The translations under genes were made by a program, and so were the position numbers. The notes beneath the pieces are model-generated. The model ran no database searches. It had not been told where the DNA came from and was given only the letters and a program-made list of their open reading frames with translations. A stretch of 64,000 nt of DNA, taken from positions 3,151,720-3,215,719 of the forward strand of contig OZ245030.1 of NCBI GenBank assembly GCA_965223985.1, given 5' to 3'. Below are positions 3,692 to 64,000 of the stretch, in pieces. The DNA is from Candidatus Poribacteria bacterium (lineage in GTDB: Bacteria; Poribacteria; WGA-4E; PCPOR2b). The stretch's first letter is position 1, and every line of letters starts with the position of its first letter.

Positions 3692-3996
3692 AATATTCCA
3701 ATTAGTCTTGAAAAAAAATTCAAGCGATTTAGGTCAATATCTTGGACGTTTCGGCTAAAAGACTGTTTAGTAATGAGATTATTTTTTTTCAAGGAGAATC
3801 TGTGCTAAAATAGTTGAGAATTGGTCTTTACAAAATTTTGCGTACCTTTTCCTGTTTACGATTCATCTTAAATGGAGGAAGAGGAAACGCCCACATTCAA
3901 GATAAAAAGCATTCCAAACTGTTGACATACATCATACATACGCTCATCAAATATCAGAGGTTCGCCGAATAAAACCGTTGAAAGAAGGTCAAGGAC

Positions 3997-26819: not shown

Positions 26820-27015
26820 CCATGCCCCCTTGGTAAGGGGGGATGCTAGTAGAGTTTTCCCTCTTGATAAGGGGGAGGCGCTAATGGAGTTCTCCCTCTC
26901 GTTAAGGGTGGAGGAAAATAGGATTCGCGCCTTACTAAGGGGGCGCCGCCCAAATTTCTCCGGCTTTCTAAGGGGCACCCCGCACATTCTTCCTCTTGCC
27001 AAGGGGGAGTTAGAG
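26820..27015. repeat. Tandem array of about six ~35-bp units, each containing a short G/C-clamped hairpin (CCyTC-TTGNTAA-GGGGG)
   Basis: ccccttggtaagggggg (26826), ccctcttgataagggggagg (26859), ccctctcgttaagggtggagg (26894), gccttactaagggggcgcc (26929), ctttctaaggggcaccc (26964), cctcttgccaagggggag (26992). Single copies of the same hairpin occur at 46188-46215 and 34340-34380. Confidence 0.5.
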
Positions 27016-30430: not shown

Positions 30431-30512
30431 GGTATACTACAAAAGCTACAGAAGACTATCGCCTTCGCTATCCGCTCAGTTGATCGCTCAGTTGATCGGT
30501 CGCTTGATTCCT
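30431..30512. repeat. REP-like element cluster
   Basis: aagactatcgccttcgctatccgctcagttgatcgctcagttgatcggtcgcttgattcctcgctatc. Confidence 0.55.
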
Positions 30513-34339: not shown

Positions 34340-34800
34340 CCATCTTGCTCCCCCCTTTTTTAAGGCGGGACTGAGGGGGTAGTAGCGTGTGTCGCGATTC
34401 GGAGCAAGTTTTTGTAGGTTGGGTAGAGTCAACGGCGAAACCCAACGTTTTTGAAACGTCCGTTCAGCCGACCGGTTAACGGCAACACGAGAACGATGGG
34501 AACGACAAAAAGGAACAAAAGGCAATGACACTATACGGGATTTGTATGATTGTGTGGAAACGCGACGCGTTTTGGTGTTCGGGAGGTTTCAAAAACGTTG
34601 GGTTTCGCTCTGTCGAACAATTCTCGCACACAATTAACGAACAGACCGATTCGTTATAATGCACATGTTTCGGCATACCCACTCTACACCAACCTACAAG
34701 AACTACAAAGACTATCGCCTTCGCTATTCGCTCCTTTGATCCTAACCCAACCTACAAGAACTGTTTGTTTGATGCCTTCAGCGCAATACGATAAGCATTA
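34340..34800. repeat. Hairpin repeat plus MITE-like and REP-like elements
   Basis: gggactgagggggt hairpin relative; then cgaaacccaacgtttttgaaacgtccg...ccgggaggtttcaaaaacgttgggtttcgct inverted termini and ctacaccaacctacaagaactacaaagactatcgccttcgctattcgctcctttgatc. Confidence 0.6.
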
Positions 34801-34856: not shown

Positions 34857-35399
34857 TTATTCTTTGCCGATGTCGGGGTTGATGGGGATTCCTGCGCCTG
34901 TGCTCCAGTTCGCGTCGTATACGCCGGCTTGGACGTAGCGGTGGAAGCTGGAGTGTTCCCAATCCTTTGGGGCGGTAACTAAGCCGTGCTTGACGGGATT
35001 ATAGTGGATGTATTCAACGTGGTTGATATAGTCTTGAGTGTCTTTGACCGTGTGTTCCCAGAATCTGCGTTGCCAGAATGCGCGCTCGTTTTTGGTTTTG
35101 CGCGATGTTGAAGTAGCACGTTCAAATGTGGTTTGGCAGTGACGGGTGAAGTAGCTTTTGATTTGCCGCCATCGGGTTGAGAAGTCGTGGTCGTCGTCGG
35201 GCAGCGTCCAGATGGTGTGGAGGTGGTCGGGTAGCAGGACGAAGGCATCAATCTCGATCGGATGGCGTTCCATCGTGGAGCGGAGCGCTTGGCGTAGGAG
35301 TTTTACGTTTTCCGGTTGGCAGAGAAAAGGTTTGCGGTCATGGGTCACGACCGTGAAGAAGTAGGTTGCGCCATTGATTTTTGCACGGCGGTAGTTCAT
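34857..35399 (-). mobile_element. Intact REP-associated tyrosine transposase (RAYT; IS200/TnpA_REP-like), 180 aa
   Basis: MNYRRAKINGATYFFTVVTHDRKPFL..., the HxH motif LLPDHLHTIW and catalytic Tyr region YINHVEYIHYNPVKHGL. The gene is surrounded by REP sequences. Confidence 0.85.
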
Positions 35400-38260
35400 G
35401 GAGGTCGCACCATTGTATTATTATGTATATTAAGATGTGGGTTTTGTGGTATTCGGAGCATTATGCCATATTATTGGGACATATATCAACGAAAACCAAG
35501 AACAACGGAAGCCAACGATCAGCTGAGCGATCAAGCGAACGAATAGGGAGCGATCAAGGGAGCGAATAGCGACCGCGATAGTCTTCTCCGTTCAGCCGAC
35601 CGGTGAATATCGACACGAGAACGATCGGAACGCGAAAAAGGAACGGGGTTGTTCGGAGTTTGGGGCGGTGTATTGCGTTTGGTATTCATTTGGTGTTCCG
35701 GAGGTTTTAAAAACGTTGGGTTTCGCTCTGTCGAACAATTCTCGCACACAATTAACGAACAGACCGATTCGTTATAATGCACATGTTTCGGCATACCCGC
35801 TTTACACCAACCTACAAAGACTACAAGAACTACCCAACCTACAGAAGCTCTACCCAACCTACGGGTTGCACGGAGGATTTGTTTTTGTAGGTTGGGTAGA
35901 GCGGGTATGGCGAAACACACGCAGTTTATTGCGAGCGATTTATGTGTTGAGGTTGTTTGGTAAATGTTAAGGTGTAGCGAAACCCAACGTTTTTGAGACG
36001 TCCGGACATCAGACCGGTTAACGGCAATACCAAAGCAATCGGAACAAGAAAAAGCAAAGGGGTTGTTCGGAGTTTGGGACGGTGTATTGTGTTTGGTATT
36101 CATTTGGTGTTCCGGAGGTTTTAAAAACGTTGGGTTTCGCTCTGTCGACCAATTCTCGCACACAATTAACGAACAGACCGATTCGTTATAATGCACATGT
36201 TTCGGCATACCCACTCTACACCAACCTACAAAGACTACAAGAACTACCCAACCTACAGAAGCTCTACCCAACCTACGGGTTGCACGGAGGATTTGTTTTT
36301 GTAGGTTGGGTAGAGCGGGTATGGCGAAACACACGCAGTTTATTGCGAGCGATTTATGTGTTGAGGTTGTTTGTGGTAAATGTTAAGGTGTAGCGAAACC
36401 CAACGTTTTTGAGACGTCCGGACATCAGACCGGTTAACGGCAATACCAGAGCGATTGAAACAAGAAAAAGCAAGGGGTTGTTCGGAGTTTGGGACGGTGT
36501 ATTGTGTTTGGTATTCATTTGGTGTTCCGGAGGTTTTAAAAACGTTGGGTTTCGCTCTGTCGAACAATTCTCGCACACAATTAACGAACAGACCGATTCG
36601 TTATAATGCACATGTTTCGGCATACCCGCTCTACCCAACCTACAAAGACTAAGGGGTTGTTCGGAGTTTGGGGCGGTGTATTGCGTTTGGTAATTATTTG
36701 GGTTGCCGGAGGTTTCAAAAACGTTGGGTTTCGCTCTGTCGAACAATTCTCGCACACAATTAACGAACAGACCGATTCGTTATAATGCACATGTTTCGGC
36801 ATACCCACTCTACACCAACCTACAAAGACTACAAGAACTACCCAACCTACAGAAGCTCTACCCAACCTACGGGTTGCACGGAGGATTTGTTTTTGTAGGT
36901 TGGGTAGAGCGGGTATGGCGAAACACACGCAGTTTATTGCGAGCGATTTATGTGTTGAGGTTGTTTGGTAAATGTTAAGGTGTAGCGAAACCCAACGTTT
37001 TTGAGACGTCCGGACATCAGACCGGTTGACGGCAACACCAGAGCGATTGAAACAAGAAAAAGCGTAAGGCGTGGTTCGGAGTTTGGGGCGGTGTATTGTG
37101 TTTGGTAATTATTTGGGTTGCCGGAGGTTTCAAAAACGTTGGGTTTCGCTCTGTCGAACAATTCTCGCACACAATTAACGAACAGACCGATTCGTTATAA
37201 TGCACATGTTTCGGCATACCCACTCTACACCAACCTACAAAGACTACAAGAACTACCCAACCTACGGGTTGCACGGAGGATTTGTTTTTGTAGGTTGGGT
37301 AGAGCGGGTATGGCGAAACACACGCAGTTTATTGCGAGCGATTTATGTGTTGAGGTTGTTTGGTAAATGTTAAGGTGTAGCGAAACCCAACGTTTTTGAG
37401 ACGTCCGGACTCAGACCGGTTGACGGCAACACCAGAGCGATTGAAACAAGAAAAAGCGTAAGGCGTGGTTCGGAGTTTGGGGCGGTGTATTGTGTTTGGT
37501 AATTATTTGGGTTGCCGGAGGTTTCAAAAACGTTGGGTTTCGCTCTGTCGAACAATTCTCGCACACAATTAACGAACAGACCGATTCGTTATAATGCACA
37601 TGTTTCGGCATACCCGCTTTACCCAACCTACAAAGACTATCGCCCTCCCTATTCGGTCGGTTGATCTACCCAACCTACAAAGACTATACGGGATTTGTAT
37701 GATTGCGTGGAAACGCGACGCGTTTTGGTGTTCCGGAGGTTTCAAAAACGTTGGGTTTCGCTCTGTCGAACAATTCTCGCACACAATTAACGAACAGACC
37801 GATTCGTTATAATGCAGATGTTTCGGCATACCCGCTCTACACCAACCTACGGGTTGCACGGAGGATTTGTTTTTGTAGGTTGGGTAGAGCGGGTATGGCG
37901 AAACACACGCAGTTTATTGCGAGCGATTTATGTGTTGAGGTTGTTTGGTAAATGTTAAGGTGTAGCGAAACCCAACGTTTTTGAGACGTCCGGACATCAG
38001 ACCGGTTAACGGCAACACCAGAGCGATTGAAACAAGAAAAAGCTAAGGCGTGGTTCGGAGTTTGGGGCGGTGTATTGTGTTTGGTAATTATTTGGGTTGC
38101 CGGAGGTTTCAAAAACGTTGGGTTTCGCTCTGTCGAACAATTCTCACACACAATTAACGAACAGACCGATTCGTTATAATGCACATGTTTCGGCATACCC
38201 GCTCTACACCAACCTACAAGAACTCAACCCAACCTACAAAGGCAACGAAAATTACAGTTT
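35400..38260. repeat. Higher-order tandem array (at least 5 copies, ~420-580 bp period) of a composite unit: a MITE-like element with ~30-bp inverted termini plus a REP hairpin pair
   Basis: Unit termini are AGCGAAACCCAACGTTTTTGAgACgTCCGGA ... TCCGGAGGTTTtAAAAACGTTGGGTTTCGCT. A perfect REP palindrome ctctacccaacctac-N23-gtaggttgggtagag and a 33-nt REP (TGTTTCGGCATACCCGCTCTACCCAACCTACAA) occur in both orientations. The unit repeats at roughly 35640, 36065, 36470, 36660, 37075, 37490, 37700 and 38040. All ORFs here are repeat translations. Confidence 0.75.
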
Positions 38261-38860: not shown

Positions 38861-38989
38861 TGTTATGATTTAGGAAAGGAACAACTACCAATTATGGATA
38901 GTTCAACTAAGGCTTGCGAATCTGGCAAGCGAAACAAAATCAAATTCAATCCTTCAACATACAAACATGCAAGGAGGAAACATACAGTC

Positions 38990-41900
38990 ATGTTGAGTAG
39001 AATTTCGAAAATGAGTGTTTTCGGTATCGTTGCGCTCATGCTCGTTCTCGGGCTGGCGTCGGACGATGCGCAGGGACGGGATCCGGCAGCTGGAACATAC
39101 GTGGTAACAATGCAAACAGAACCATCTGTGCTGCGCGCAGCAGACACAGCTACGGTGACGTTTACCCTCACTGTCGACCTTCGGGAAAACAAGTCTACTC
39201 AAGACCCAATCCCGGAGGATCAGGCTAACGCTGATACGGCGGAGCGTACGGTCACCATTAACATTCCGGGAGGGTCGACAGGGTGGTCGCCCAACCCGGT
39301 TGCGTTATCCGGAGAGACTGCGGTGGACCCGGGCGAGGTGAGTTTCGCTAAAACTACTGTTATCACCGACAACACTCTCGCGTGGATTTCCGGGTCTAAC
39401 GCACGGAAGCTGAATATCAAAATTGTCGCAGGAATTGACGGTAATGGTGTATATACCATCGTATACGCAGCGGCGACTGTGCCTAACCGCAAAGGCGATA
39501 GCTACAGATTTTTAATTGACAACGCAGACACCAAAGACATTCCGTATAGCGTTGATTACGCGACGAGCGGATCGGGAACGGTCACGATGAGTCCGTACAG
39601 CCCGTTGGACGCGATTGTTGGCGGCGATGCTGATGATAAAAACGCTTGGAACGGCAAATATGTTTTCAATAGCAAGACGGCGTTAAGACCGTTGAAGTTT
39701 ACTTACAAAGCGGCGGGTTCTATGCCAAAGGATTCAACCGTTTCAATAGTTATGACGGGTGGATTCAGCCTTCATGGAAAGAGCAGTTCCGTAATTTCCG
39801 TGAGCGGTTCCGGTTCTCCAGAACTTTCTACTCCCGTAGATACCGTTGTAGTAGATGAAAGTACTACGGTAGTCGCTACAGTGAAGGCAGAGGGCGGGCT
39901 GGGAGCCGGCCAGTCGATAGCCATAACCATTAGGGAGCTTGTGATGCCGGAGGTCGTAGCGGCAGCCGATGCCCCGGATACGGATAATACCATTACAGTG
40001 ACTTCTACGTCGGGTACTACGAACTTTCAAGACGATGCCCGCCCGGTTGCTATTGACAATGCTGCTGGAGATGTCGACAAAGGTTTATTCGAGTTCTACA
40101 CGACTGCAGCGCCCGGGACCGGTGAAATGACGATTAATTCTGGCGGCGACCCGATTCAAAACATGCGCGTCGTGGAAGGCACTGACCTCGGGACATTGGT
40201 ATTTGGAATTACGGGCACGGACGGTATGGGACCGGACGCCAAATTTCAGATTAAGGTTCCGGGCGCCCCTTGGCCCGAGCCTATTAAGGCGTCCGGCACG
40301 ATTGGCGTTGTTGCCGATTCGGAAGCCGCCGGACACACGGCGAATGCGGAGATTGGCACTGGCGGTGCGGCTCGCACACTCAGCGGAAGCCTTACAACTA
40401 ATACACTTCAATCTGGTACAAATAATCCCGAGGCTAATGCAAATTTGAACGATACTGATAACGGCGGGATTACGTACCGAGCCGGCGCGATATCGGTACA
40501 CGGCAAGCATGAGTTCATGCTTTTGACCAGTTCCGGTCCGCACGGCGCCACATTGAAAGAGAGGACCGGCGGGGACGGGGCTGACGCGTACCCCCGGTAC
40601 ATTGAAGTCACCGCGAAGCACGAAAGCGGTACGTTCGTCGTTAGAGAGGGCGGATCGCCGTTAGTGCAGTCAAAACCCGCGAACGAGCACACGCTCCAGT
40701 TAGTCTTTAAAGCCACTGGCTACATGCCGGCAGGGATGGTTGTGTTTAGGTTCCCGGATAGATGGAAAAGTCCTCGCCGTGACGTCGCTCCGCCGTTTGA
40801 AGTGGGAGAGGTGAGGTTTAGCAATAACGCGACGTTTATTGTCAACACCGACGGGACCATCACTGCGACGGGGGACTGGCGAGATGAGGAAATTGTAGTT
40901 ACCTACAGAGGCATGGTTCCGGGCGAGGCGGGTACCCCGCCCGAGTCACACACTTTTACCGTGGATGCATCATCGTTCGGAGGTGATGCTAGCTTCCCGG
41001 CCCCGGCGGCCCGACCGGCTGCTTATTCCCATACGATTGGTCCCAATCTCGCGGCGGATGGCAGCGGCACACTCGCGATTGAGCCGAAGAATGCGAATGC
41101 CGGCGAGACGATTAATTTGAATATAACTTACACAGCCGCGGGCACGATGGAAGATGGATCAGTTGTTGAGGTTACCATCCCCGAAGGCTGGCCTGATCTT
41201 GATGCGCCTGGCACATCAGTCGAGATCGGCGCAGAGGGCATCGTGGCAACCTTGAATGAGTCGAAGAGGACGCTGACCGCTACAACTGTTGATGATATGG
41301 TCACTGATTCCAAACTCGTGTTCAACGTCACGGGCGTTACAGCGCCGGCTGTCGGCAGAGGTTACCAGTTCACCGCGCAATCAAAATCGCACGGAGAACT
41401 AAAGAGCCTTTCGTCAAGGCAAATCTCCGGTGCAGTCATCAATATCAGCAACGTGGCTGCTGGTTCCGCCCTGCTTACGCTAGTGAGGGAAGACGGAACG
41501 ATGGCGGAATCTGCCGAACCCCTGGATTCGTTTGAAACGGCCAAAATCACTTTTACGGTTGGCTTGGCGATGCAACCCGGGGCGGAGGTTAGGGTCACGG
41601 TTCCGGATGGCTGGACGAATGAACCTTTCCAGGACAACGGCATGCCGCGTACGAGCGGTGAGGTTACGCTTGAAGGGAAGGCGGATCTTAGCGTCGAGGG
41701 AAGCGTGCTGATCGCCAAGGCGAACGCTCAGATTAACCCTGGCGAAACAGTGACGTTCACCTACCATAAGCCGACCGCGCCTGAAGGCGAAACAACATCG
41801 TCTTTCGATACACAGGCGTCAATTGTTGAAGGCGGGGGTTTACTGGCGGTTGCAAATCAGCAAACAACTGTGGTCGTTAGAAGCAAGGTCACCGCGTTGA

Positions 41901-44900
41901 CGCTTACCGCCGAATCGGCGACGAGCGTGTTCGTAGGCGATCCGGTCAAACTCACCGTTAGCTCGGATGCGCGTGCTCCGGTTCGCGGTCTTGCGGTAAC
42001 GTTAGCGACCGATCCGGCTGATACAGGGATGTTCTCCCTGACCGAAGACGGGACAGCCACCACTTCGGTGACGATTGAGGATTCGGCTACTACGATGTCC
42101 ACCACGTTTTATTACATAGGCCCAAGTTCCATTGATACGGCATCTGTCGATGTCGAGTTGACGGCGACGGCTATGGTGGATGGCGAAGCCGTTGCATCTG
42201 ATCCCGTGGAAGTTAATGTCAGGTCCACGATTAGCATGCTGCAGGTTAACGGCATGCATGATGATCCGGAACCGGTGGAGGTTGGTGCCGCAATTACGGT
42301 GACAGCGATCGGTAAAGACGGCAGAGCCACCGTAACGGTAACTGACGCTGAAGAAGAGGCGGTCGAGTCACTAACAAATCTTGGACTTGATGTCGACTCC
42401 GATGCTACTGACGTACCGGCAGGTAGTGTTGCTTACAAGCGTAAAATTGAACTGCCGGACGATCTTGCCGAAGGCGATTACACCGTAACCGTGACTATTG
42501 ACGGCGTTTGGTTGCCAATAGAGATCAGTGTGGTGGCAGCCAGAGCACAGGTTACCGAATTGACGCTCACCGCGTCAGCGGATAATTTCTTCGCGGGCGA
42601 GTCAATCACAGTCACTGTTGCATCGGATGCTCGTGCACCCGTTGACGGTCTTGAGGTGACATTGTCGACAGATCCCGCAGATTCGGGAACGTTCTCCGAT
42701 CCCGAAAGCGAGGAGACCCTCAAGGGAGGGATGGTGACGATTGAGGATGCTGCGGATTCAATGTCTGCAGATGTTAATTACACCAACTCTGCGAGGGGGA
42801 CTTTCATGCTGACGGCGACAGCTATGGTTGATGGCGAGGCCGTTACATCTGACCCGTTGGAAGTTACGGTCAACCCCACGATTACCGTTCAGGTTAACGG
42901 CATGGACGCACCGGAAGCGGTGTTGCCCGGCGCCACAATTAGTGTGACGGCGAGCGGTAAAGCAGGCGGAGGCACCGTAATGGTAACCGACGCTGAAGGC
43001 GAAGCAGTCGAGTCATTAACAGGGCTTGGACTTAATGTCGACGCCGATGCTGCTGACGTTCCCGAAGGCAGCGTTGCCTACATGCGCGACATTGAACTGC
43101 CCGCGGATATTGCTGACGGCACTTACACAGTTACCGTGACAATTGGCAGCGAGTCGGTGCCAGTGATGTTGGAGGTCATGACACCCACAGAACCGGTCAC
43201 CGCTATCGCGATTGTACCGGATCCGACCAGCGTGTTTATCGGCGAGGACATTGCCGTCTCCGTGACGCTGTGGAGCGGTGCCGAAGAAGGGGCTGCCTCG
43301 GCAGCTATGGTCATCAACCTGACGGATGGCGAAGCCGGCGGTAGTTTCACCGATACCGAAGGCAATGCTATCACTTCGGTCACTATAGCCGTTGGAGGTT
43401 TCGACGCGTCTGCGAAATATAGCAATGCCAGCAGAGGCGAAATCACGCTGACCGCGACGGCAGCCGATGAGGCGTTGGAACTTGAGCCGGCAACCGCCGA
43501 TGTCACGGTCAAGCCCTCGATTTACAATTTTGAGGTTAACGGCACGGACGAGCTAGGCCCGCTGACGGCTGGCGTCACAATTACTGTGTCGGCGACCGGA
43601 AAAGAAGGTAAAGCCACCGTAACGGTAACTGACGCGGACGGCGAAGGGGTTGTGCCATCGAAAGGGCTTACAGGACTTGATGAAGAGCCCGATGAAGAGG
43701 GCAACGTTGATTACACGCGTAAATTTGACCTACCGGTCGTTCTTGCCGATGGCATTTACACAGTTACGGTTACCATTGCCGGCGAGACTGCCGCAATGGC
43801 AATCGAAATCATAAACGACCAATCAAAACCGGCGTTGAGCAACCAGAAGGTATTGCCCGACACGGTAGCGAGCGGCAGTGTGATTACGCTTAGAATCGAC
43901 GTGAGTTCTAATGTGCCTAATCCCGAGTTGTCAGTGATGGCGGATGTCAGCGAGATTGATGCCGACCAAGCCGCTGTTCAGTTGACGAAACTGCCCGGGA
44001 CGGAGAGCACCTATGCCAACATCTACGTGGTCAAAAACAGCGACCCGCAAGACGATGGCGAGAAGACCATCACGTTCATGGCGACTGATAGGATTGGCGG
44101 CGCAAGCGAAATGACTGTGTCCACGTCCTTGAAGAACGACGTTACGCCTCCGGTGCTGAGCGATCCGACCGCTATGCCTTCACCAGTGGTGAACGGTATG
44201 GACGTTACCATTTCGGTTAGCAGTGAATCCGGTCTCACGGTCACGGCAGATGCTTCCGAAATCGGCGGCGGCATGGTGACGCTGACCGAGGGTACGGTTG
44301 ACGACGGTATGGATGCCAACGGCAACGGTAATGGTATGGATGCCAACGGCAACGGTAATGGCATGGATGCCAACGGCAACGGTAATGGTATGGATGCCAA
44401 CGGCAACGGTAATGGCATGGATGCCAACGGTAACGGTAATGGCATGGATGAAGATATGGTCGGCACGGGCATGTATAGCAGCGACCCGATCACAGTCGCC
44501 GTTACTGAAGGTGGCGATCAGACCATCACCGTCAAGGCGACCGATGCCTCTGGTAACGAGGCTACCATAGACGTAACCGTCACGGTTGAGGTGCACGAGG
44601 TGACAAGCGTTACTTTCGTTCGCACGGGCGATACGGTTACGGTAACCACGATGGGCACCGCTGGATTGAAAGCGGAGTTCAGCGTCTTCAATGAAGCTAT
44701 GAAGATTATCGGTGAGAAGGCGATGACGGAATCGGATGATGGCGGAAGCTATACAGGCAGTTTCATCATTGTTGTAGACGCCCATCCCGCTGGTGAGTAT
44801 TGGATTTCTAGCAGCGTGGGTACTGCTGCCAGTATGACCGCAGAAGGTGCACTCACGATCGACCACGGGGCGCATTTCACCCTGTCAATCGGCGCGGGTA

Positions 44901-46102
44901 CGCATATAATCCATATCCCGTTAGATGTTAAGCAGATTAACGGCGAAGATGCGTTGATTGACACCGTCGGCGACCTATACGATGCGCTCGGCGAAGCGGT
45001 CAACTACATCATTACGGTCGGCGACGACGGTGGATGGAAGACTTACCTCGGCGATATGAGCGCGGGCACCGCAGCGGACGCGGCAATCGGCGACGATACC
45101 GGTTTGATTGTGGTGATGTCCGACGCTAAGACGCTTGAACTCGTTGGCGATGCGCTAGGTACCGCCGGCGCTTCACAAATTAACATTGACGTGGGGAACA
45201 ACCTCGTCGGTGTACCGCTTGATCCGGTGGTGGATATGATGATTAGCGCCGCGCTGGTCGAAGGTGTTAGTTCAATCTCGGTCTCCAAAGCCGATGGAAT
45301 GGGATTCCACACGATTAGGGAACCCGGCGACGACGGCGACGGTCCTGTCATAGGCGGCGTCGGCTATCTAGTTTCCTACATTGGAGCGGAACCAGCCAGC
45401 ATCCCGATATTCGGTTCAGCATGGGAGAACGACGGATCGGTTTCGGCAGCTCCTGCAATCGCCTTCAGCGGTTCGCAGACGCCGGTGCTGTATGTTGAGG
45501 GCGGCGTTATGGACGAGTTCGACATGTTGTCACGAGTTCCTGAACTCCGTGTCACTGTAAAGAACCTGTCTACAGGCGCTTCGCTCGACACCGTTCTCGG
45601 AACGGAGCAGTCTGCGACAGCGTACAGCGGTACGTTTGTTGAATTGAGCCGCCACGCAGCGAAGGCTGGCGATGTGCTGGAGATAGTAGCGCATTCACCG
45701 AACCCGTACGTTGGTGTTCGACCGGTTCAGCAGATTGTTGTTAGCGCGGAAGAGGTGTTGACGAGCCGTATCAGCTTGCCCGACCTGGAAGTCTACGAGA
45801 TTCCGTCGGAGAGCGAGCTGTTGGCTAACTACCCGAATCCGTTTAACCCTGAAACGTGGATTCCGTACCGGTTAGCGAAAGCTGCCGAAGTGACGTTGGA
45901 TATTTATGACACCAACGGACGCTTGGTACGGACCATTGATATCGGCTTCAAACCAGCCGCTGTGTACGAATCACGTGCATCAGCGATTTACTGGGATGGC
46001 CGCAACAACTACGGTGAACGCGTTGCCAGTGGCACGTACTTCTATCACTTAACTGCGGGCGATGATTATGCATCAACTCGCAGAATGGTGATCCTGAAGT
46101 AA
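38990..46102 (+). CDS. Giant secreted repeat protein (2370 aa) with Ig-like repeat modules and a T9SS-type C-terminal sorting domain
   Basis: AAGGAGG RBS then the ATG at 38990 (12-nt spacing) and signal peptide MLSRISKMSVFGIVALMLVLGLA. Four ~210-aa internal repeat modules (TALTLTAESATSVFVGDPVKLTVSSDARAPV... / TELTLTASADNFFAGESITVTVASDARAPV...). C-terminal CTD NYPNPFNPETWIPYRL...LDIYDTNGRLVRTI...WDGRNNYGERVASGTYFYHLTAG...MVILK. Confidence 0.85.
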   Translation: MLSRISKMSVFGIVALMLVLGLASDDAQGRDPAAGTYVVTMQTEPSVLRAADTATVTFTLTVDLRENKSTQDPIPEDQANADTAERTVTINIPGGSTGWSPNPVALSGETAVDPGEVSFAKTTVITDNTLAWISGSNARKLNIKIVAGIDGNGVYTIVYAAATVPNRKGDSYRFLIDNADTKDIPYSVDYATSGSGTVTMSPYSPLDAIVGGDADDKNAWNGKYVFNSKTALRPLKFTYKAAGSMPKDSTVSIVMTGGFSLHGKSSSVISVSGSGSPELSTPVDTVVVDESTTVVATVKAEGGLGAGQSIAITIRELVMPEVVAAADAPDTDNTITVTSTSGTTNFQDDARPVAIDNAAGDVDKGLFEFYTTAAPGTGEMTINSGGDPIQNMRVVEGTDLGTLVFGITGTDGMGPDAKFQIKVPGAPWPEPIKASGTIGVVADSEAAGHTANAEIGTGGAARTLSGSLTTNTLQSGTNNPEANANLNDTDNGGITYRAGAISVHGKHEFMLLTSSGPHGATLKERTGGDGADAYPRYIEVTAKHESGTFVVREGGSPLVQSKPANEHTLQLVFKATGYMPAGMVVFRFPDRWKSPRRDVAPPFEVGEVRFSNNATFIVNTDGTITATGDWRDEEIVVTYRGMVPGEAGTPPESHTFTVDASSFGGDASFPAPAARPAAYSHTIGPNLAADGSGTLAIEPKNANAGETINLNITYTAAGTMEDGSVVEVTIPEGWPDLDAPGTSVEIGAEGIVATLNESKRTLTATTVDDMVTDSKLVFNVTGVTAPAVGRGYQFTAQSKSHGELKSLSSRQISGAVINISNVAAGSALLTLVREDGTMAESAEPLDSFETAKITFTVGLAMQPGAEVRVTVPDGWTNEPFQDNGMPRTSGEVTLEGKADLSVEGSVLIAKANAQINPGETVTFTYHKPTAPEGETTSSFDTQASIVEGGGLLAVANQQTTVVVRSKVTALTLTAESATSVFVGDPVKLTVSSDARAPVRGLAVTLATDPADTGMFSLTEDGTATTSVTIEDSATTMSTTFYYIGPSSIDTASVDVELTATAMVDGEAVASDPVEVNVRSTISMLQVNGMHDDPEPVEVGAAITVTAIGKDGRATVTVTDAEEEAVESLTNLGLDVDSDATDVPAGSVAYKRKIELPDDLAEGDYTVTVTIDGVWLPIEISVVAARAQVTELTLTASADNFFAGESITVTVASDARAPVDGLEVTLSTDPADSGTFSDPESEETLKGGMVTIEDAADSMSADVNYTNSARGTFMLTATAMVDGEAVTSDPLEVTVNPTITVQVNGMDAPEAVLPGATISVTASGKAGGGTVMVTDAEGEAVESLTGLGLNVDADAADVPEGSVAYMRDIELPADIADGTYTVTVTIGSESVPVMLEVMTPTEPVTAIAIVPDPTSVFIGEDIAVSVTLWSGAEEGAASAAMVINLTDGEAGGSFTDTEGNAITSVTIAVGGFDASAKYSNASRGEITLTATAADEALELEPATADVTVKPSIYNFEVNGTDELGPLTAGVTITVSATGKEGKATVTVTDADGEGVVPSKGLTGLDEEPDEEGNVDYTRKFDLPVVLADGIYTVTVTIAGETAAMAIEIINDQSKPALSNQKVLPDTVASGSVITLRIDVSSNVPNPELSVMADVSEIDADQAAVQLTKLPGTESTYANIYVVKNSDPQDDGEKTITFMATDRIGGASEMTVSTSLKNDVTPPVLSDPTAMPSPVVNGMDVTISVSSESGLTVTADASEIGGGMVTLTEGTVDDGMDANGNGNGMDANGNGNGMDANGNGNGMDANGNGNGMDANGNGNGMDEDMVGTGMYSSDPITVAVTEGGDQTITVKATDASGNEATIDVTVTVEVHEVTSVTFVRTGDTVTVTTMGTAGLKAEFSVFNEAMKIIGEKAMTESDDGGSYTGSFIIVVDAHPAGEYWISSSVGTAASMTAEGALTIDHGAHFTLSIGAGTHIIHIPLDVKQINGEDALIDTVGDLYDALGEAVNYIITVGDDGGWKTYLGDMSAGTAADAAIGDDTGLIVVMSDAKTLELVGDALGTAGASQINIDVGNNLVGVPLDPVVDMMISAALVEGVSSISVSKADGMGFHTIREPGDDGDGPVIGGVGYLVSYIGAEPASIPIFGSAWENDGSVSAAPAIAFSGSQTPVLYVEGGVMDEFDMLSRVPELRVTVKNLSTGASLDTVLGTEQSATAYSGTFVELSRHAAKAGDVLEIVAHSPNPYVGVRPVQQIVVSAEEVLTSRISLPDLEVYEIPSESELLANYPNPFNPETWIPYRLAKAAEVTLDIYDTNGRLVRTIDIGFKPAAVYESRASAIYWDGRNNYGERVASGTYFYHLTAGDDYASTRRMVILK
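44306..44440 (+). repeat. Five near-identical tandem copies of a 27-bp unit (third-position T/C alternation) inside giant gene 1, encoding (MDANGNGNG)x5
   Basis: gg(t/c)atggatgccaacggcaacggtaat x5, in frame. Confidence 0.8.
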
Positions 46103-57741: not shown

Positions 57742-58332
57742 ATGGATTCAGCAGGGATGCAGCGGACTATTGGCAAGTTTATCGAGCTCTACGGCGACCG
57801 CACGGGCAAGATGGGCGATGGGATTCACGGGGGGTTCGCGTGGGTGCGCGACGCAAAGTTCGTGTTGCTGGCGTCGCGCGGTACTGACGTCGGAAATGCG
57901 GGGGATTGGCGGCGACTCTCCCGGCTAGTGGGACTTGCCGGTCACCTTCACCGTCCGGTGCTTCTGTGGGATCTACCGCTCCAGATTGCCGCGTCGAAAT
58001 TGGAGCCCGATGCGTTGGAGATTAACGAGGCAATCCACAGCGGAAAATTGATGTTGTTAAAGGTGCGATTGCCCATCATTAGCGTGTTTGAAAGCCGTTT
58101 TCCGGTTCTACTCCAATCTGAGTTGGCGTTGGTGGAGGGTGCGGTAATTGTGTCTGACAATCCAGCTATTATTCCATCCATGGGGAATCCTCTGTCACCG
58201 ATCGCGGCTGTAAAGTCAGGGACGCATGACCTTAGCAAAACGATTTTGGCACTTCTTGACAGGGCTTCGCAAATCGCCGCCGACAATTTTGAACAGCGGC
58301 GCATTGAGCGAAGTCGGCAGATTACTATGTAA
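57742..58332 (+). CDS. Carboxyltransferase (AccA)-like domain protein, short and probably degenerate
   Basis: FIELYGDRTGKMGDGIHGGFAWVRDAKFVLLASRG parallels the AccA motif F.ELHGDR...DD.AIVGG.ARL.GRPV. At 196 aa it is shorter than AccA and no GGSGGAL-type oxyanion motif was found. Confidence 0.4.
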   Translation: MDSAGMQRTIGKFIELYGDRTGKMGDGIHGGFAWVRDAKFVLLASRGTDVGNAGDWRRLSRLVGLAGHLHRPVLLWDLPLQIAASKLEPDALEINEAIHSGKLMLLKVRLPIISVFESRFPVLLQSELALVEGAVIVSDNPAIIPSMGNPLSPIAAVKSGTHDLSKTILALLDRASQIAADNFEQRRIERSRQITM

Positions 58333-58428
58333 ATTGATTGATTTCCGGGGTCGTTTCTGTTACTCTAGTTGGCGAACTTCGAGCGACGTATACGAAATTG
58401 TAAAGGCGATGATGGTGGAATACCTCTC

Positions 58429-59064
58429 ATGCTAGAACGTAAGTTCCGAGGAAAGTTCAGCGCGTTTCTTGCGCTCGTTGCGCGGAAGTTGGTTTCGATC
58501 GGCGTTACGGCGAATATGATGACCTTGATTGGGTTTTGCGTTAATGTGGTTGCGGCAGTGTTTCTGGCGACTGGACGGTTGGTGCTGGCTGGGGTGCTTA
58601 TCCTGTTGGGCGGTATATTCGATATGATGGATGGCGCTGTGGCCCGCGTGGCGCCGAAGTCTAACGCGTCGGGCGCGTTGCTGGATTCGGTCATCGACCG
58701 CTACTCAGAGGGCGCGGTCTTTTTAGGGGCACTCATCTATTTTTATACCCACAGCAATTTATTTGGGGTTATCCTCGTCTTCGCCGCGATGATAGGTTCC
58801 ATCCTCGTGAGTTACGTCCGCGCCCGTGCGGAAGGGCTGCGAATCGAATGCAAGGTCGGATTCATGCAGCGACCTGAGCGGATTGCGCTCTTGGCGTTCG
58901 GTACGCTATTGCAGGGTGTGCTCAGCGTACATTTCGCCGTTGTCCAGTCTACCGCGTTGGTTCTCACCGGTGTTATTGCAATTCTCGCCATTACCTCCCA
59001 CATCACCGCCGTCCATCGGCTCGTTTTCTCTCTTTACGAATTGAGTAATCGTTCGCGCTTGTAG
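58429..59064 (+). CDS. CDP-alcohol phosphatidyltransferase family protein
   Basis: Signature D-G-x2-A-R-x8-G-x3-D-x3-D present as DMMDGAVARVAPKSNASGALLDSVIDRYSE; multiple TM helices. Confidence 0.75.
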   Translation: MLERKFRGKFSAFLALVARKLVSIGVTANMMTLIGFCVNVVAAVFLATGRLVLAGVLILLGGIFDMMDGAVARVAPKSNASGALLDSVIDRYSEGAVFLGALIYFYTHSNLFGVILVFAAMIGSILVSYVRARAEGLRIECKVGFMQRPERIALLAFGTLLQGVLSVHFAVVQSTALVLTGVIAILAITSHITAVHRLVFSLYELSNRSRL

Positions 59065-60900
59065 GTTTGGGCTGAGGGATGAATCCAGGGACTATCGCCT
59101 AACATCCCTATCGAGGTCGCTATCGTGCTCCCTTGATCTATTCGCTACTTTGATCCCTACCCAACCTACAAGTACTATGCACGCATCCCGGGCGGCGGAC
59201 CGAACAATCAGCGGTTGAATGTTTTTGAGATGTCCCGGGAGCCAATCGGCGAACATCAACAACAGAGCGATTGAAACATGAAAAGGCAAGTTTAGGATTT
59301 GGAACCGTGCAATGGTGTCAGAATTTGTTGGGAATGCGGGAGGTTTCAAAAACTACAAAAGCTACCCAACCTACAGTAACTTTATGAATTGAGAAATCGT
59401 TCACGCTTGGACATTGGGTGAAGCGGAGAAAGGAGGGACTATCGCCTTCGTTATTCACTCAGTTGATCCCTACCCAACCTACAAATACAAGAGGAGTGAC
59501 GGTGAAGAAGATAGGTCGAGTTATTGTAGGTTGGGTAGAGCGGATTTGATGTAATACAGGAAGTGTTTTGGAGCGGTCAGTGTGTTGACTTTGTTTGGTA
59601 AATGTTATGATGCAGCGAAACCCAACGTTTTTGAAAGGTCCGGACAGCCAACCGGCTCTAATGAACCCCACCAGCGTGGAAAACAAGAACAAAAGCCAAT
59701 AACAGCGGTTTATTGCGATTGGTATGTATTTGGATTGCGGGAGTGTTTTGTAGTTTTCGTTGAGGGATGAATCCAGGGACTATCGCCTAACATCGGTATG
59801 CAGAACTACAAAGACTATCGCAGTCGCTATTCGCTCCCTTGATCGCTCAGTTGTTCGTTGGCTTAACCCAACCTACACGAACTTTATGAATTGAGAAATC
59901 GTTAGCGCTTGTAGGTTTGGGTTGATGGATGAATCCAGGGACTATCGCCTTCGCTCATTGCTCAGTTGATCGCTCTACCCAACCTACAAGTACTATGCAC
60001 GCATCCCGGACGGCGGACCGAACAATCAGCGGTTGAATGTTTTTGAGATGTCCCGGGAGCCAATCGGCGAACATCAACAACAGAGCGATTGAAACATGAA
60101 AAGGCAAGTTTAGGATTTGGAACCGTGCAATGGTGTCAGAATTTGTTGGGAATGCGGGAGGTTTCAAAAACGTTGGGTTTCGCTCCGTGAACATTGCCAA
60201 GGTCATCGCTCGGAAATTAGGACGGTGTATGGGGACAGGAACGGTTTTGGAATTATCCGCTCTACCCAACCTACAAATACAAGAGGAGTGACGGTGAAGA
60301 AGATTGGTGGAGTTATTGTAGGTTGGGTAGAGCGGATTTGATGTAACACAGGAAGTGTTTTGAAGCGGTCAGTGTGTTGAATTTGTTTGGTAAATGTTAT
60401 GATGCAGCGAAACCCAACGTTTTTGAAAGGTCCGGACAGCCAACCGGCTCTAATGAACCCCACCAGCGTGGAAAACAAGAACAAAAGCCAATAAAAGCGG
60501 TTTATTGCGATTGGTATGTATTTGGATTGCGGGAGGTTGCAAAAGCGTTGGGTTTCGCTCCGCGAACATTGCCAAGGTCATCGCTCGGAAATTAGGACGG
60601 TGTAAGGGGGCAGGAACGGTTTTGGAATTATCCGCTCTACCCAACCTACAAAAGCTACCCAACCTACAGTAACTTTATGAATTGAGTAATTGTTCACGCT
60701 TGGACATTGGGTGAAGCGGAGAAAGCAGGGACTATCGCCTAACATCGGTATGCAGAATTACAAAGACTATCGCAGTCGCTATTCGCTCCCTTGATCCCTC
60801 GCTATTCGCTCAGTTGATCGCTACACAAACTACAAGAACTGCTTAACCCAACCTACAAAAGCTATAAAAGCTAAGTTGATTTTAACCCAAACTATGCAGC
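59065..60900. repeat. REP/MITE-like repeat cluster with a ~870-bp internal duplication, immediately upstream of membrane-protein paralog 2
   Basis: Repeated blocks ggatgaatccagggactatcgcc..., ctacccaacctacaagtactatgcacgcatcccgg...cgggaggtttcaaaaacgttgggtttcgct, gcagcgaaacccaacgtttttgaaaggtccgga...; 59083-59590 and 59950-60460 are near-identical. Confidence 0.7.
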
Positions 60901-60912
60901 GGGGCATTTTTT

Positions 60913-62847
60913 GTGAGTAAGTTTACGCCGACGACAAACAGGAAGCCCAGCGGGATTTCGATACGAACCTTGGCGTTCGGCATGTTCTTTGCTCTGGTTA
61001 ATGCCTATTGGGTATCGACAAACGATTTGCTGATCGGCTTAGTACACAATTACATGTCGCTGTTCAGCAACGCGGTTTTCACGCTGTTCCTGCTAGTTTT
61101 ACTGAATTTTCTTCTCAAGAAGTACGTTCCGACACTTGCGTTCACCGCCTCCGACCTATTGGTCATTTATGTGATGACCGTGATGGTTACGACCTTTTCG
61201 GGGAATCGAATGAATCGATTTGTCGGACTGCTCTCCCATCCCTATTGGTTTGCCACTCCCGAAAATGACTGGCGGAATCTGTTCTGGCGGTATATCCCGG
61301 CGTGGTTTACGGTCAACGACGAGAACGCACTGAGCGCCCTCTATCACGGCGAGACGACGTTTTTCAGCGGTGCGAATTTTTTGCCTTGGCTGCGCCCGAT
61401 ACTCTGCTGGTCGGCGTTTCTGTTTGTGCTGTACGTCGTCCTGCTTTGCATCAATACGGTGATACGTAAGCAATTCACGGAGCATGAGAGACTGACCTAC
61501 CCGATTACTTGGCTACCGCTGGAGATGGCGAAGGATATAACGGTTTTCTTGACGAATAGGCTGATGTGGGTCGGTTTTGGGATTGCTGCGGCGATAGGTC
61601 TTCTGAACGGTTTGAGCGTTTTATATCCGTCCATACCGGATATTCCGGTAGGGTGGACGTCGATTAACTTCCGAGACAAACCGTGGAGCTATATGGGCGG
61701 GACCCGGATTTCGTTCCAGCCGTTTGTGATTGGGCTCTCGTATTTCATGCCGCTAGACCTTGCGTTTTCGGCGTGGTTCTTCTATTTCTTGAAGAAATTC
61801 ACGCAATTGACGCTGGGAGCGACGATGGGCTGGCGTAACCTTTACTTCCCCGAACAGGCTCAAGGCGCATGGAGCGGCTTGGGAATCCTTGCGCTCTGGG
61901 TCGGACGCAGACATCTGAAACGGGTCTTCACACAGGTATTCACGGGTAAGCGGGTAATTGATGACTCGAAAGAACCGATGTCGTATCGGACCGCGATTAT
62001 TGGGATTGCCGCGGGTCTGATTTTTCTCCTTTTTTTCGCTCATAAAGCCGGGCTTTCGCTGTGGATTATTTTGGTGTTTTTTGTCATCTATGTTTGCAGC
62101 GCCATCGGTGTGAACAAGATTAGGGCGGGGCTTGGCGTTGCGGTGCATGAGTTGCTTTGGGTCGACCCCGGCGAGACGATGGTTACTTCAATGGGAACCC
62201 GGATGTTTGGCGCGCGAAACTTGACCGTACTTTCGTTCCTGTTTGTGCTGAATCGCGATCAGCCCGGTCATCCGATGCCGAACCAGCTGGAAGCTTTTCG
62301 GATAGGGGAGCAGGCGAATATTCACGCGAGAAAATTGGCTTGGGCGATGGTTCTGACGTTCGCCATCGGTATACCGGTGACCTTTGTGATATTCTTCAAC
62401 CATCTGTATCAACAAGGGGCTGAAAATTCGGGGACGATTTTCATGCCAATCGGACGGGAAGGGTTTTCGGGGCGGCTGCAGATATGGCTAACGAATCCGA
62501 CGGGGCGTGATTATACGGCGATGGGATTCATGGGGTTTGGTTTCGCCATGACTGGGTTTCTGTTAGTCATGAAGATGCGGTTTCTGTGGTGGCCGTTTCA
62601 CCCCGTCGGTTATGTGCTGGGCTCGAGTCCAGCGGAGATGATATATATTTGGGTGCCGGTGCTCATTAGTTGGTGTCTAAAGTTCGGCATCCTGCGGTAT
62701 GGCGGATTGCGGGCATACCGTACCGCGTTGCCGTTTTTTGTGGGGTTGATATTGGGTGATTATACGTTGGGATGCCTTTGGAGCATTATTGGGGCGGTGT
62801 TCAGGGTTCCGGTGTATAATATGGGTTGGCACCCTGTGACGTCTTGA
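60913..62847 (+). CDS. Polytopic membrane protein of unknown function (paralog 2 of 3; 644 aa)
   Basis: GTG start. Shares blocks NAYWVSTNDLLIGLVHNYMSLFSNAVFTLF, HPYWFATPENDWRNLFW and ERLTYPITWLPLEM and the same length with the 22049 gene. Confidence 0.75.
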   Translation: MSKFTPTTNRKPSGISIRTLAFGMFFALVNAYWVSTNDLLIGLVHNYMSLFSNAVFTLFLLVLLNFLLKKYVPTLAFTASDLLVIYVMTVMVTTFSGNRMNRFVGLLSHPYWFATPENDWRNLFWRYIPAWFTVNDENALSALYHGETTFFSGANFLPWLRPILCWSAFLFVLYVVLLCINTVIRKQFTEHERLTYPITWLPLEMAKDITVFLTNRLMWVGFGIAAAIGLLNGLSVLYPSIPDIPVGWTSINFRDKPWSYMGGTRISFQPFVIGLSYFMPLDLAFSAWFFYFLKKFTQLTLGATMGWRNLYFPEQAQGAWSGLGILALWVGRRHLKRVFTQVFTGKRVIDDSKEPMSYRTAIIGIAAGLIFLLFFAHKAGLSLWIILVFFVIYVCSAIGVNKIRAGLGVAVHELLWVDPGETMVTSMGTRMFGARNLTVLSFLFVLNRDQPGHPMPNQLEAFRIGEQANIHARKLAWAMVLTFAIGIPVTFVIFFNHLYQQGAENSGTIFMPIGREGFSGRLQIWLTNPTGRDYTAMGFMGFGFAMTGFLLVMKMRFLWWPFHPVGYVLGSSPAEMIYIWVPVLISWCLKFGILRYGGLRAYRTALPFFVGLILGDYTLGCLWSIIGAVFRVPVYNMGWHPVTS

Positions 62848-62849
62848 CC

Positions 62850-63620
62850 GTTTTTGTATGTTGGGTTGGGATCGAGCCATCGAAACGAGAAAAGGCAATG
62901 ATATCGTTTAGAATGTGGAACGGAGTGTTGAGTTTGGTATGTATTTGGTTTGACAGAGAAAACTATCGCCTAACATCGGTATGAAGAACCACGAAGACTA
63001 TCGCCTAACATCGGTGTGAATAACTACAAAGACTATCGCCTAACATCGGTATGAGGAACTACAAAGACTATCGCCTCACATCGGTATGAGGAACTACGAA
63101 GACTATCGCCTCACATCGGTGTGAAGAACTACAAAGACTATCGCCTAACATCGGTGTGAGGAACTACAAAGACTATCGCCTAACATCGGTGTGAAGAACT
63201 ACAAAGACTATCGCCTAACATCGGTATGAAGAACTACGAAGACTATCGCCTAACATCGGTATGAGGAACTACAAAGACTATCGCCTCACATCGGTATGAG
63301 GAACTACGAAGACTATCGCCTCACATCGGTGTGAAGAACTACAAAGACTATCGCCTAACATCGGTGTGAGGAACTACAAAGACTATCGCCTAACATCGGT
63401 GTGAAGAACTACAAAGACTATCGCCTCACATCGGTATGAAGAACTACGAAGACTATCGCCTAACATCGGTGTGAAGAACTACGAAGACTATCGCCTAACA
63501 TCGGTGTGAGGAACTACAAAGACTATCGCCTTCGCTATTCGCTCAGTTGATCGCTCAGTTGATCCTAACCCAACCTACAAGACCGTGATCTCAACCCAAC
63601 CTACAAAGACTGCTAGGGAT
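62850..63620. repeat. REP-like cluster containing a 35-bp tandem array (about 16 units, 62950-63530) with higher-order duplication
   Basis: Unit gactatcgcct(a/c)acatcggt(a/g)tga(a/g)gaactac(a/g)aa x about 16 without unique spacers; units 3-8 are re-duplicated as units 9-14. Ends in ...ctatcgccttcgctattcgctcagttgatcgctcagttgatcctaacccaacctacaag. Confidence 0.8.
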
Positions 63621-63625
63621 TACCT

Positions 63626-64000
63626 GTGAATCAATCCACCTCCATCGAAAACGGCAAGTCAAGTGGGATTCCTCTCAGAACCTTGGTCATTGGACTCATT
63701 GTGGTCTTCGTAAATGCCTATTGGGTTTCCGTCAATGAGTTTATAATCGGCCCAATTCACAACTATGTCTCACTGTTCAGTAATGCCGTTTTCACCCTGT
63801 TTGTGCTGGTTCTGCTCAATCTCCTTTTGGAGAAACTACTACCGAAATTGGCGTTGAAGACCGCCGACCTTTTGGTCATCTACGCTATGGTCGTCATGGT
63901 GACGACGGTGGCTGGATACCCAATGAACAGACTGGTCGGAACGCTCGCTCACCCATTCTGGTTCGCCACGGCGGAAAATGACTGGCGGAATTTATTTTGG
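63626..64000 (+). CDS. Polytopic membrane protein of unknown function (paralog 3 of 3), 5' partial at the window edge
   Basis: GTG start; VNQSTSIENGKSSGIPLRTLVIGLIVVFVNAYWVSVNEFIIGPIHNYVSLFSNAVFTLF...HPFWFATAENDWRNLFW is collinear with paralogs 1 and 2; the ORF runs off the end of the window. Confidence 0.6.
   Translation, partial: MNQSTSIENGKSSGIPLRTLVIGLIVVFVNAYWVSVNEFIIGPIHNYVSLFSNAVFTLFVLVLLNLLLEKLLPKLALKTADLLVIYAMVVMVTTVAGYPMNRLVGTLAHPFWFATAENDWRNLFW

Follow-up and report, generated by a model that had tools for sequence, protein, structure and literature searches.

In the genome of a member of Candidatus Poribacteria, a phylum whose members are known symbionts of sponges, a 35-bp sequence is repeated head to tail in front of a membrane-protein gene. 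What is this array, where does it come from and does its length matter for the gene that follows? An earlier note on this DNA had described the array, attributed a re-duplication of six of its units to recent unequal crossing-over and proposed that changes in its length would alter the spacing between an upstream promoter and the gene, making it a potentially phase-variable region. It had also called for a comparison across strains and for a check that the array is not an assembly artefact. Here, we analysed the whole 64,000-nucleotide stretch of DNA, referred to as the window, together with related contigs.

Genomic context and structure of the array

The array is flanked by two genes of the same family. 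Paralog 1 (60913-62847, + strand) encodes a DUF6785/DUF6784 membrane protein of 644 aa (Pfam PF20581, E=4.5e-145; PF20580, E=2.5e-33) with ca. 10 hydrophobic segments and ends directly upstream of the inserted DNA discussed below. Paralog 2 begins with a GTG codon and runs off the window (63626-64000, + strand; PF20581, E=3.8e-24). Its start at 63626 agrees with the gene calls in related contigs and with protein P0012, to which it is 94% identical; in the related contigs it encodes 640 aa and the full gene was found in L001 and L005-L015. A third DUF6785/DUF6784 paralog is located at 22049-23995. In the window, the gap between the co-oriented paralogs 1 and 2 measures 778 bp, and the neighbours of the array are these two DUF6785 genes and a gene encoding a hemocyanin domain. 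The closest named homologs belong to Candidatus Poribacteria, and nothing relevant was found in the literature on DUF6785. No exact record existed for the 644-aa protein of the window; related contigs were reached via the neighbouring 312-aa protein and members of 90%-identity clusters. In exact-protein look-ups, the locus was retrieved on long-read contigs, including circular ones, with lengths of 1.6-4.9 Mb; the array thus occupies a chromosomal gap between two co-oriented paralogs. The previous placement of the array upstream of a membrane-protein paralog was correct for the gene at 63626, which is a DUF6785 paralog, but left out that the array fills the interval separating this gene from a co-oriented paralog that ends at 62847.

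Tandem Repeats Finder reported the array at 62962-63531 (period 35, 16.3 copies, 93% matches, 0% indels, score 951). Phased by unit, it spans 62961-63531 on the + strand and comprises 16 full units followed by an 11-bp partial unit, in good agreement with the approximately 16 copies noted before. The consensus of the unit, taken from the unit table, is GACTATCGCCTAACATCGGTGTGAAGAACTACAAA. A degenerate 24-mer of the unit matched 18 times in the window and not once in any of 100 dinucleotide-preserving shuffles. Sixteen of these matches make up the array, where they are spaced by exactly 35 bp, and the remaining pair, at 59778 and 60730, are solitary units whose positions had earlier been given as 59776 and 60733. 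Nearly all variation within the array falls on four biallelic columns (12 A/C, 21 G/A, 25 A/G and 33 A/G). Units 3 to 8 (63031-63240) and units 9 to 14 (63241-63450) differ at only 1 of 210 positions, and the self-identity of the array peaks at an offset of 210 bp (96.1% compared with 91.8-94.6% at other offsets). The higher-order duplication of six units that had been read from the letters is thus real and not a chance pattern, and it fits the proposed unequal crossing-over, or else slippage. A second, smaller repeat follows the array, namely a 12-bp microsatellite (CGCTCAGTTGAT; 63539-63564, + strand; 2.2 copies by Tandem Repeats Finder) whose copy number also varies by strain; for instance, the window has 2 copies, L001 has 3 and L008 has 6.

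Neither coding capacity nor RNA structure could be assigned to the array. All six reading frames are closed across it, with a longest open stretch of 34 codons, and no hairpin was found in the 35-bp unit, which folds at -0.6 kcal/mol and no better than shuffles. Single units and three-unit concatemers, evaluated on both strands, folded no better than their shuffles (-0.4 to -4.1 kcal/mol, z +0.5 to +2.5), and the RNA fold of the whole gap likewise showed no excess structure (z -0.8 on the + strand and +4.0 on the - strand). An Rfam search of 58000-64000 at a permissive E-value returned only a chance miRNA match at E=0.24. We considered whether the array might nonetheless encode overlapping 12-codon mini-ORFs, M(R/K)NY(K/E)DYRLTSV ending in [A/G]TGA, or a structured RNA. 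Every unit does contain [A/G]TGA, such that stop and start overlap from unit to unit, and in that frame the variation is synonymous at two of the four columns. However, no Shine-Dalgarno sequence precedes the starts, the chain is broken by indel-bearing units in other strains, and there is neither an Rfam match nor structure beyond that of shuffles, making this reading extremely unlikely. Two further candidates were rejected. A CRISPR array can be dismissed since the start-to-start spacing equals the 35-bp unit, leaving no spacers, and Rfam gave no CRISPR match in 58000-64000. Iterons of a replication origin can be dismissed because the neighbouring genes include no initiator gene and no GC-skew reversal occurs near the array; cumulative GC skew rises near-steadily across the window with only small early dips, and the locus belongs to chromosomal contigs of 3.7-4.6 Mb.

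Strain comparison

The array is present at the identical position in six other long-read contigs of the same species, which derive from five samples and whose flanking genes are 98.1-100% identical to those of the window. The number of 35-bp units differs widely, with 4 in L013, 7 in L007, about 7 in L008, 9 in L009, about 14 in L012, 16 in the window and about 23 in L001. Counts for L001, L008 and L012 are approximate due to units of irregular length, which may be consensus errors or reflect mixed populations. In all strains the units vary at the same few columns, while the order of the variants differs. The locus therefore shows both hallmarks of a minisatellite or variable-number tandem repeat (VNTR), that is head-to-tail copies of one unit of roughly 10-100 bp (here with a period of 35) and a copy number that differs among close strains at one locus (here in seven contigs).

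Arrays of differing length at the same site in seven contigs show that the array is a genuine hypervariable non-coding VNTR and not an assembly artefact. A mis-collapsed repeat could account for the irregular units in the three related assemblies and for the short-read contig L010, which begins just right of the array and thus breaks at it. Yet the site and the flanks of the array are the same in all seven contigs, of which the six related ones originate from five samples; the arrays, at 150-820 bp, are far below long-read length; and the copy in the window is perfectly phased with no indels. The strain comparison called for in the earlier note has in this way effectively removed the artefact from consideration.

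In every array-bearing strain, paralog 2 is intact at 640 codons and shows a dN/dS of 0.10-0.19 relative to the lineage that lacks the insert. The gene is under purifying selection and thus still in use whatever the length of the array.

Origin of the insert

A sister lineage represented by L005, L014 and L015 has only 34 bp between the two paralog genes, with the junction reading ...tcttga catcgctgtgaaatca gactgctagggattacctGTG. Paralog 1 of this lineage is ca. 91% identical to that of the window. The short gap in the sister lineage indicates that most of the 778-bp gap in the window is a derived insertion, and the ancestral 34-bp intercistronic distance suggests that the two genes formed a two-gene operon. 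The filled site does not correspond to a clean insertion with target duplication, as 16 bases of the empty site have been replaced.

The left part of the insert (62848-62960, + strand) is absent from the insert-free lineage. Its length is 113 bp in all of the seven insert-bearing contigs except L007 (116 bp), and its sequence is 100% identical in L001. Within it lies a REP-like arm, CGTTTTTGTATGTTGGGTTGGGATC (62849-62873, + strand), whose GTAG is intact in strain L013. The right end of the insert carries two inverted REP arms, GATCCTAACCCAACCTACAAG and GATCTCAACCCAACCTACAAAG (63561-63610, + strand), which contain CTAC, the complement of GTAG. Two inverted-repeat pairs, I1 and I2, connect the left part with 63561-63585 and 63587-63610 at 84-88% complementarity. 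The insert as a whole is bounded by the inverted arms CGTTTTTGTA(T/G)GTTGGGTTGGGATC and GATCCTAACCCAACCTACAAG, which are 24-35 nt long and 83-88% complementary. One side thus shows a GTAG with a stem after it and the other side a CTAC, with TTGTA(T/G)GTTGGGT and ACCCAACCTACAA in inverted orientation. These arms lie outside the array, 687-713 nt apart. A weak -10-like sequence, TAGAAT, was also observed at 62909-62914 in all displayed strain sequences (window, L001, L007-L009, L012 and L013).

The repeat family and its probable transposase

The array closes with a module, AAGACTATCGCCTTCGCTATTCGCTCAGTTGATC (63519-63552, + strand), that corresponds to the ancestral zero-copy junction of a repeat family. 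The array end reads AAGACTATCGCC-TTCGCTATTCGCTCAGTTGATC and then continues to ...ACCCAACCTACAA. Further copies of the closing module are found at 30454, 34710, 59437, 59940 and elsewhere, amounting to at least 10 in the window on both strands, and those at 59437, 59940 and 34710 represent family copies without the 35-bp unit. Both single copies of the unit are flanked by the direct repeat GACTATCGC; one (59778-59812, + strand) is part of a mosaic repeat cluster and the other (60730-60764, + strand) lies upstream of paralog 1. For the word ACCCAACCTACA, 42 occurrences were counted in the window against an expectation of 0.14. Tandem arrays of family modules also exist elsewhere in the window, and those of other Poribacteria genomes have periods of 39-352 bp and 3.7-6 copies. 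REP arms at other places in the window build strong doublet hairpins, such as that at 60250-60342 with a folding energy of -23.8 kcal/mol (z -9.1). Repeated DNA accounts for 20.5% of the 64-kb window, much of it from this REP/BIME-like family. The 35-bp unit is thus a sub-module of a mosaic, REP/BIME-like family which is associated with a RAYT gene, described below, and makes up a large share of the intergenic DNA in the window, a relationship that the earlier note had not recognised.

Outside the species, the family and the unit show different distributions. In other Poribacteria species, where the module is widespread, it is commonly found as the zero-copy junction GACTATCGCC-TTCGCTATTCGCTCAGTTGATC. 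Exact scans with the 35-bp unit gave 0 matches in 185,579 GTDB species genomes, in JGI metagenomes and in IMG/VR, and these exact scans thus revealed neither relatives of the unit outside this species nor a link to phages. Taken together, this marks the 35-bp unit as a lineage-specific derivative of an older module. A 20-mer of the family, GTAGGTTGGGTAGAGCGGAT, is found in many copies in four Poribacteria chromosomes and also in MAGs of Chloroflexota, Desulfobulbaceae, Anaerolineaceae and Chamaesiphon, followed each time by AGCGAAACCCAAC. GTAG-tagged repeats have been reported to be spread across phyla (PMC3733652), and the distribution of GTAGGTTGGGTAGAGCGGAT fits this description.

A gene for a REP-associated tyrosine transposase (RAYT or TnpA-REP; 180 aa) is encoded in the same window at 34857-35399 on the - strand. 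Its product was identified via NCBIfam NF047646, Pfam Y1_Tnp and PDB 4ER8, scoring 201.6 bits against the NF047646 equivalog (cutoff 80) and E=3.9e-40 against the E. coli TnpA-REP structure 4ER8, with the HUH motif and the region of the catalytic tyrosine aligned. The gene is bracketed by an inverted pair of modules, listed as pair I1 of the gene (34 nt, 91% complementary), with the left arm AAGACTATCGCCTTCGCTATTCGCTCCTTTGATC at 34708-34741 on the + strand and its right partner at 35552-35585 on the - strand. This pair, the nearest to the gene, is the same module that closes the array (AAGACTATCGCCTTCGCTATTCGCTC..TTGATC), and GTAG arms lie just outside it. In addition, a 3.2-kb cluster of tandem family units of 179-414 bp adjoins the gene. 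The layout matches REPtrons and RAYT-adjacent REPIN clusters as described (PMC3333891, PMC3116915), and the RAYT encoded at 34857-35399 is likely the cognate enzyme of the repeat family. Literature searches on repeats in Poribacteria and on the REP sequence words brought up nothing relevant, and no paper in the literature searched linked a RAYT-REP system with Candidatus Poribacteria.

The family shows several features that define REP/BIME repeats. It is present in high copy number, mainly between genes, its palindromes carry a GTAG/CTAC tag at their foot, inverted repeat copies flank a RAYT gene, and tandem copies vary in number by strain. The 35-bp unit itself is not the 20-40 nt imperfect palindrome that is reiterated in such systems, and the array is therefore classed as a minisatellite derived from the linker of a BIME-like element and not as a REP array.

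Proposed mechanism of expansion

Based on the above, we consider the array to be, most likely, a hypervariable non-coding minisatellite inside a selfish REP/BIME-like element of the Poribacteria RAYT system, carried as a tolerated passenger. A composite element with inverted GTAG-type REP arms entered the 34-bp spacer of the DUF6785 paralogs. Its delivery by the RAYT system is suggested by co-occurrence in the same 64 kb and by shared modules. Some copies of the linker module are observed to contain a single 35-bp segment bordered by the direct repeat GACTATCGC(C), and the resulting 35-bp periodicity, GACTATCGCC...35...GACTATCGC, could seed slipped-strand mispairing and unequal recombination. 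Slippage or unequal homologous exchange would then expand and contract the segment in situ, with its length still changing today. The 6-unit duplication and the strain series are observed, and expansion by one of these routes is what we infer from them. Finally, the array would most likely be read through as a long unstructured intercistronic spacer and act as a tolerated passenger rather than as a switch.

A different route to the tandem copies would be their construction by the transposase, through RAYT-catalysed single-strand cleavage and strand transfer in place of slippage or unequal exchange. The window encodes a RAYT with aligned HUH and tyrosine motifs, and CTAC, which reads GTAG on the opposite strand, is retained in every 35-bp unit along with CT dinucleotides. 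TnpA-REP strand transfer assembles tandem BIME copies in vitro, and cleavage is possible away from the REP (PMC3333891). On the other hand, the unit lacks the hairpin required for TnpA-REP binding (PMC3333891, PMC8266576), and the 210-bp duplication and the variant maps shuffled between strains are of the kind that homologous exchange generates. We therefore regard transposase-built copies as rather unlikely.

Possible effects on the downstream gene

The proposal that array length switches paralog 2 by changing the distance to a promoter was not supported. No sigma-70-like promoter and no intrinsic terminator were detected in 62600-63800 on either strand, in a scan that used the consensus sigma-70-type promoter while poribacterial promoters are uncharacterised; the scan is relevant since the organism encodes a sigma-70-family factor. 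The array lies neither in a promoter spacer nor in a reading frame, the two positions in which phase-variable tracts act, the ancestral gap is only 34 bp long and paralog 2 is intact. Phase variation of paralog 2 by array length is accordingly unlikely.

The broader form of this idea is a contingency locus, in which array length would tune or switch paralog 2 via promoter distance, the length of the 5'UTR or intercistronic region, or mRNA stability. Several observations are compatible with it. The array ranges from 4 to about 23 units among conspecific strains and the adjacent 12-bp microsatellite is variable too, the array lies directly upstream of an intact and selected gene, and the weak TAGAAT is kept across the displayed strains. 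Moreover, REP/BIME elements have been reported to influence transcription and post-transcriptional regulation (PMC8266576). Against this, no promoter or terminator was detected in the scanned region, units of 35 bp are too long to work by altering -35/-10 spacing, the gap RNA shows no more structure than its shuffled versions, the ancestral state is an operon-type gap, and similar tandem arrays of family modules are present at many unrelated sites. Overall, a contingency locus appears doubtful; if true, it would provide heritable but reversible expression variants in the symbiont population.

A related and distinctly improbable option is that the array acts as a tunable intercistronic spacer. 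Here, the RAYT element would have split a DUF6785 operon, and the copy number (0, 4 ... 23) would set the expression ratio of the two paralogs, with changes in copy number being either RAYT-driven or slippage-driven. If true, this would create standing reversible expression diversity in a sponge symbiont, and a contingency locus would have arisen from a domesticated transposase system and a non-palindromic linker instead of REP hairpins.

The uniformity of the units invites yet another reading, namely a binding platform offering 16 phased sites to a DNA-binding protein, e.g. one involved in nucleoid structure, partition or regulation. Among more than 80 units from seven strains, 30 of the 35 positions show practically no variation, and BIME linkers can hold IHF sites (PMC3333891). 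However, such uniformity is explained by the concerted evolution of tandem repeats. Moreover, the unit has no dyad symmetry and its 35-bp period does not fit a whole number of helical turns, the number of copies shows no constraint (4-23, and none in the sister lineage), and no candidate gene for a binding protein lies beside the array. We consider this function very unlikely and retain the tolerated minisatellite as the preferred explanation.

Comparison with known systems

The best analogue of the array is a tandem, strain-variable BIME-2 or REPIN cluster. Like the Poribacteria locus, E. coli BIME-2 and atypical BIMEs are intergenic mosaics of GTAG-tagged inverted REPs and short linker motifs, their head-to-tail copies are well conserved within a locus and variable in number between strains, and the gene of the cognate Y1 transposase is flanked by the same repeats (PMC3333891). 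They differ in that the Poribacteria array reiterates a 35-bp linker without a REP hairpin, reaches copy numbers of up to 16-23, has its REP arms outside the array and resides in an uncultured symbiont. The non-palindromic nature of the amplified piece sets it apart from classical BIME-2 and counts against the analogy. In Pseudomonas fluorescens SBW25, inverted REP doublets form the mobile unit (REPIN), and REPIN clusters similarly consist of ordered, tandem, near-identical units, including flanking sequence, which adjoin a RAYT gene (PMC3116915). SBW25 repeats whole REPINs, with up to ca. 4 units and ca. 700 bp, whereas the Poribacteria array reiterates just 35 bp from within the spacer. Large REP clusters have also been described as reiterating units plus flanking DNA (PMC3733652).

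Bacterial VNTRs of the MLVA type share with the array a non-coding unit of tens of bp, a length polymorphism between close strains, shuffled variant units and higher-order duplications from unequal exchange. There is no difference in kind, the only particular being the origin of the array inside a RAYT-associated element. The contingency loci of Neisseria and Haemophilus resemble it in having a hypermutable tract beside a gene for a surface or membrane protein. However, their units are 1-7 bp long and located in the -35/-10 spacer or the reading frame, whereas the Poribacteria unit has 35 bp with no promoter detected, and the tract sits between two cistrons.

Conclusions

Strain-variable tandem arrays in REP, BIME and REPIN clusters are established for E. 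coli and Pseudomonas, and the array adds little to general biology in this respect. What is unusual is that a non-palindromic linker, and not a REP pair, has been amplified to 16-23 copies. The locus documents a RAYT-REP system in Candidatus Poribacteria. Short-read assemblies of such genomes are expected to break at loci of this kind, with L010 as an example. For the uncultured sponge symbiont itself, the array represents a high-resolution strain marker with 4-23 copies, and the gene pair, separated by 0, 4, 7, 9, 14, 16 or 23 units in different contigs, could serve as a natural series for studying the effects of REP insertions on an operon.

The insertion site and the DUF6785/DUF6784 genes

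Divergence between the insert-bearing and insert-free lineages shifts abruptly at the insertion site. We compared the two DUF6785/DUF6784 paralogs (60913-62847 and 63626 onward) among same-species contigs carrying the insert and array (L001, L007, L009, L012 and L013) and contigs of the insert-free sister lineage (L005, L014 and L015). Between lineages, dS was ca. 0.34 for the first paralog and ca. 0.07-0.09 for the second, and this jump suggests that recombination had a breakpoint at the intergenic insert or close to it. A third paralog of 648 aa (22049-23995, plus strand) resembles the pair at 60913-64000 in its DNA; this genome carries multiple copies of the family.

Upstream of the first paralog, comparison with contigs L002, L004, L005 and L007-L009 showed that a 1.85-kb repeat cluster (59065-60912) is also strain-variable in length and content. 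In L005 and L014 it contains an additional minus-strand gene instead, and several contigs (L002-L004) end within the cluster.

The 35-bp array (62961-63531) is adjoined by a second hypervariable tract (63539-63564), whose 12-bp unit, CGCTCAGTTGAT, includes a GATC. At the homologous sites of L001, L007-L009, L012 and L013, its copy number was found to vary by strain, with for example two copies in the window, three in L001 and six in L008. Since [A/G]TGA is present in every unit of the 35-bp array, the array allows a reading as successive 12-codon mini-ORFs, M(R/K)NY(K/E)DYRLTSV, linked into a chain by the overlap of each stop with the following start. No Shine-Dalgarno sequence is present for these mini-ORFs and indels interrupt the chain in other strains; it is probably meaningless.

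The RAYT gene and related repeats

An intact RAYT gene (REP-associated tyrosine transposase; 34857-35399, minus strand) lies in a REPtron-like setting: its flanks (34400-34760 and 35500-35930) hold a 34-nt inverted module pair together with inverted GTAG arms, and both bracket the gene. Our literature search found no paper linking Poribacteria with REP or RAYT. A repeat-rich block of 3.2 kb (35052-38241) starts within the RAYT gene and continues through the adjoining intergenic space, upstream of a gene encoding 2402 aa (38894-46102). Its tandem units of 414, 179 and 394 bp are each present in 2-2.5 copies with 95-98% identity, and repeated DNA makes up 20.5% of the 64-kb window. The 2402-aa gene itself holds an in-frame 27-bp tandem repeat (44309-44450; 5.3 copies, 96% identical).

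A distinct short hairpin repeat of type CCCCCTTGGTAAGGGGGAGG (26825-26914; 2.6 copies, 35-bp period) was found again in the related contigs L006 (3600-3713), L020 and L082 and may represent a second REP class. Another Poribacteria chromosome (L039, OZ242326.1) carries tandem arrays at 1191-1333 and 3699-3905 (39-40 bp period, 3.7-5.2 copies) whose unit, GCGCGGCAAGATGCCGCGC with CTAC after it, looks like a classical REP. Other Poribacteria species thus have REP arrays of short period.

Outside the Poribacteria, the exact 20-mer GTAGGTTGGGTAGAGCGGAT, followed 40-100 nt on by AGCGAAACCCAAC, also occurs in MAGs of Chloroflexota, Anaerolineaceae, Desulfobulbaceae, the FCB group and Chamaesiphon (GTDB genomes L026, L027, L044, L051, L053, L058, L060, L066 and L076). 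This cross-phylum identity hints that this REP/RAYT type has spread horizontally.
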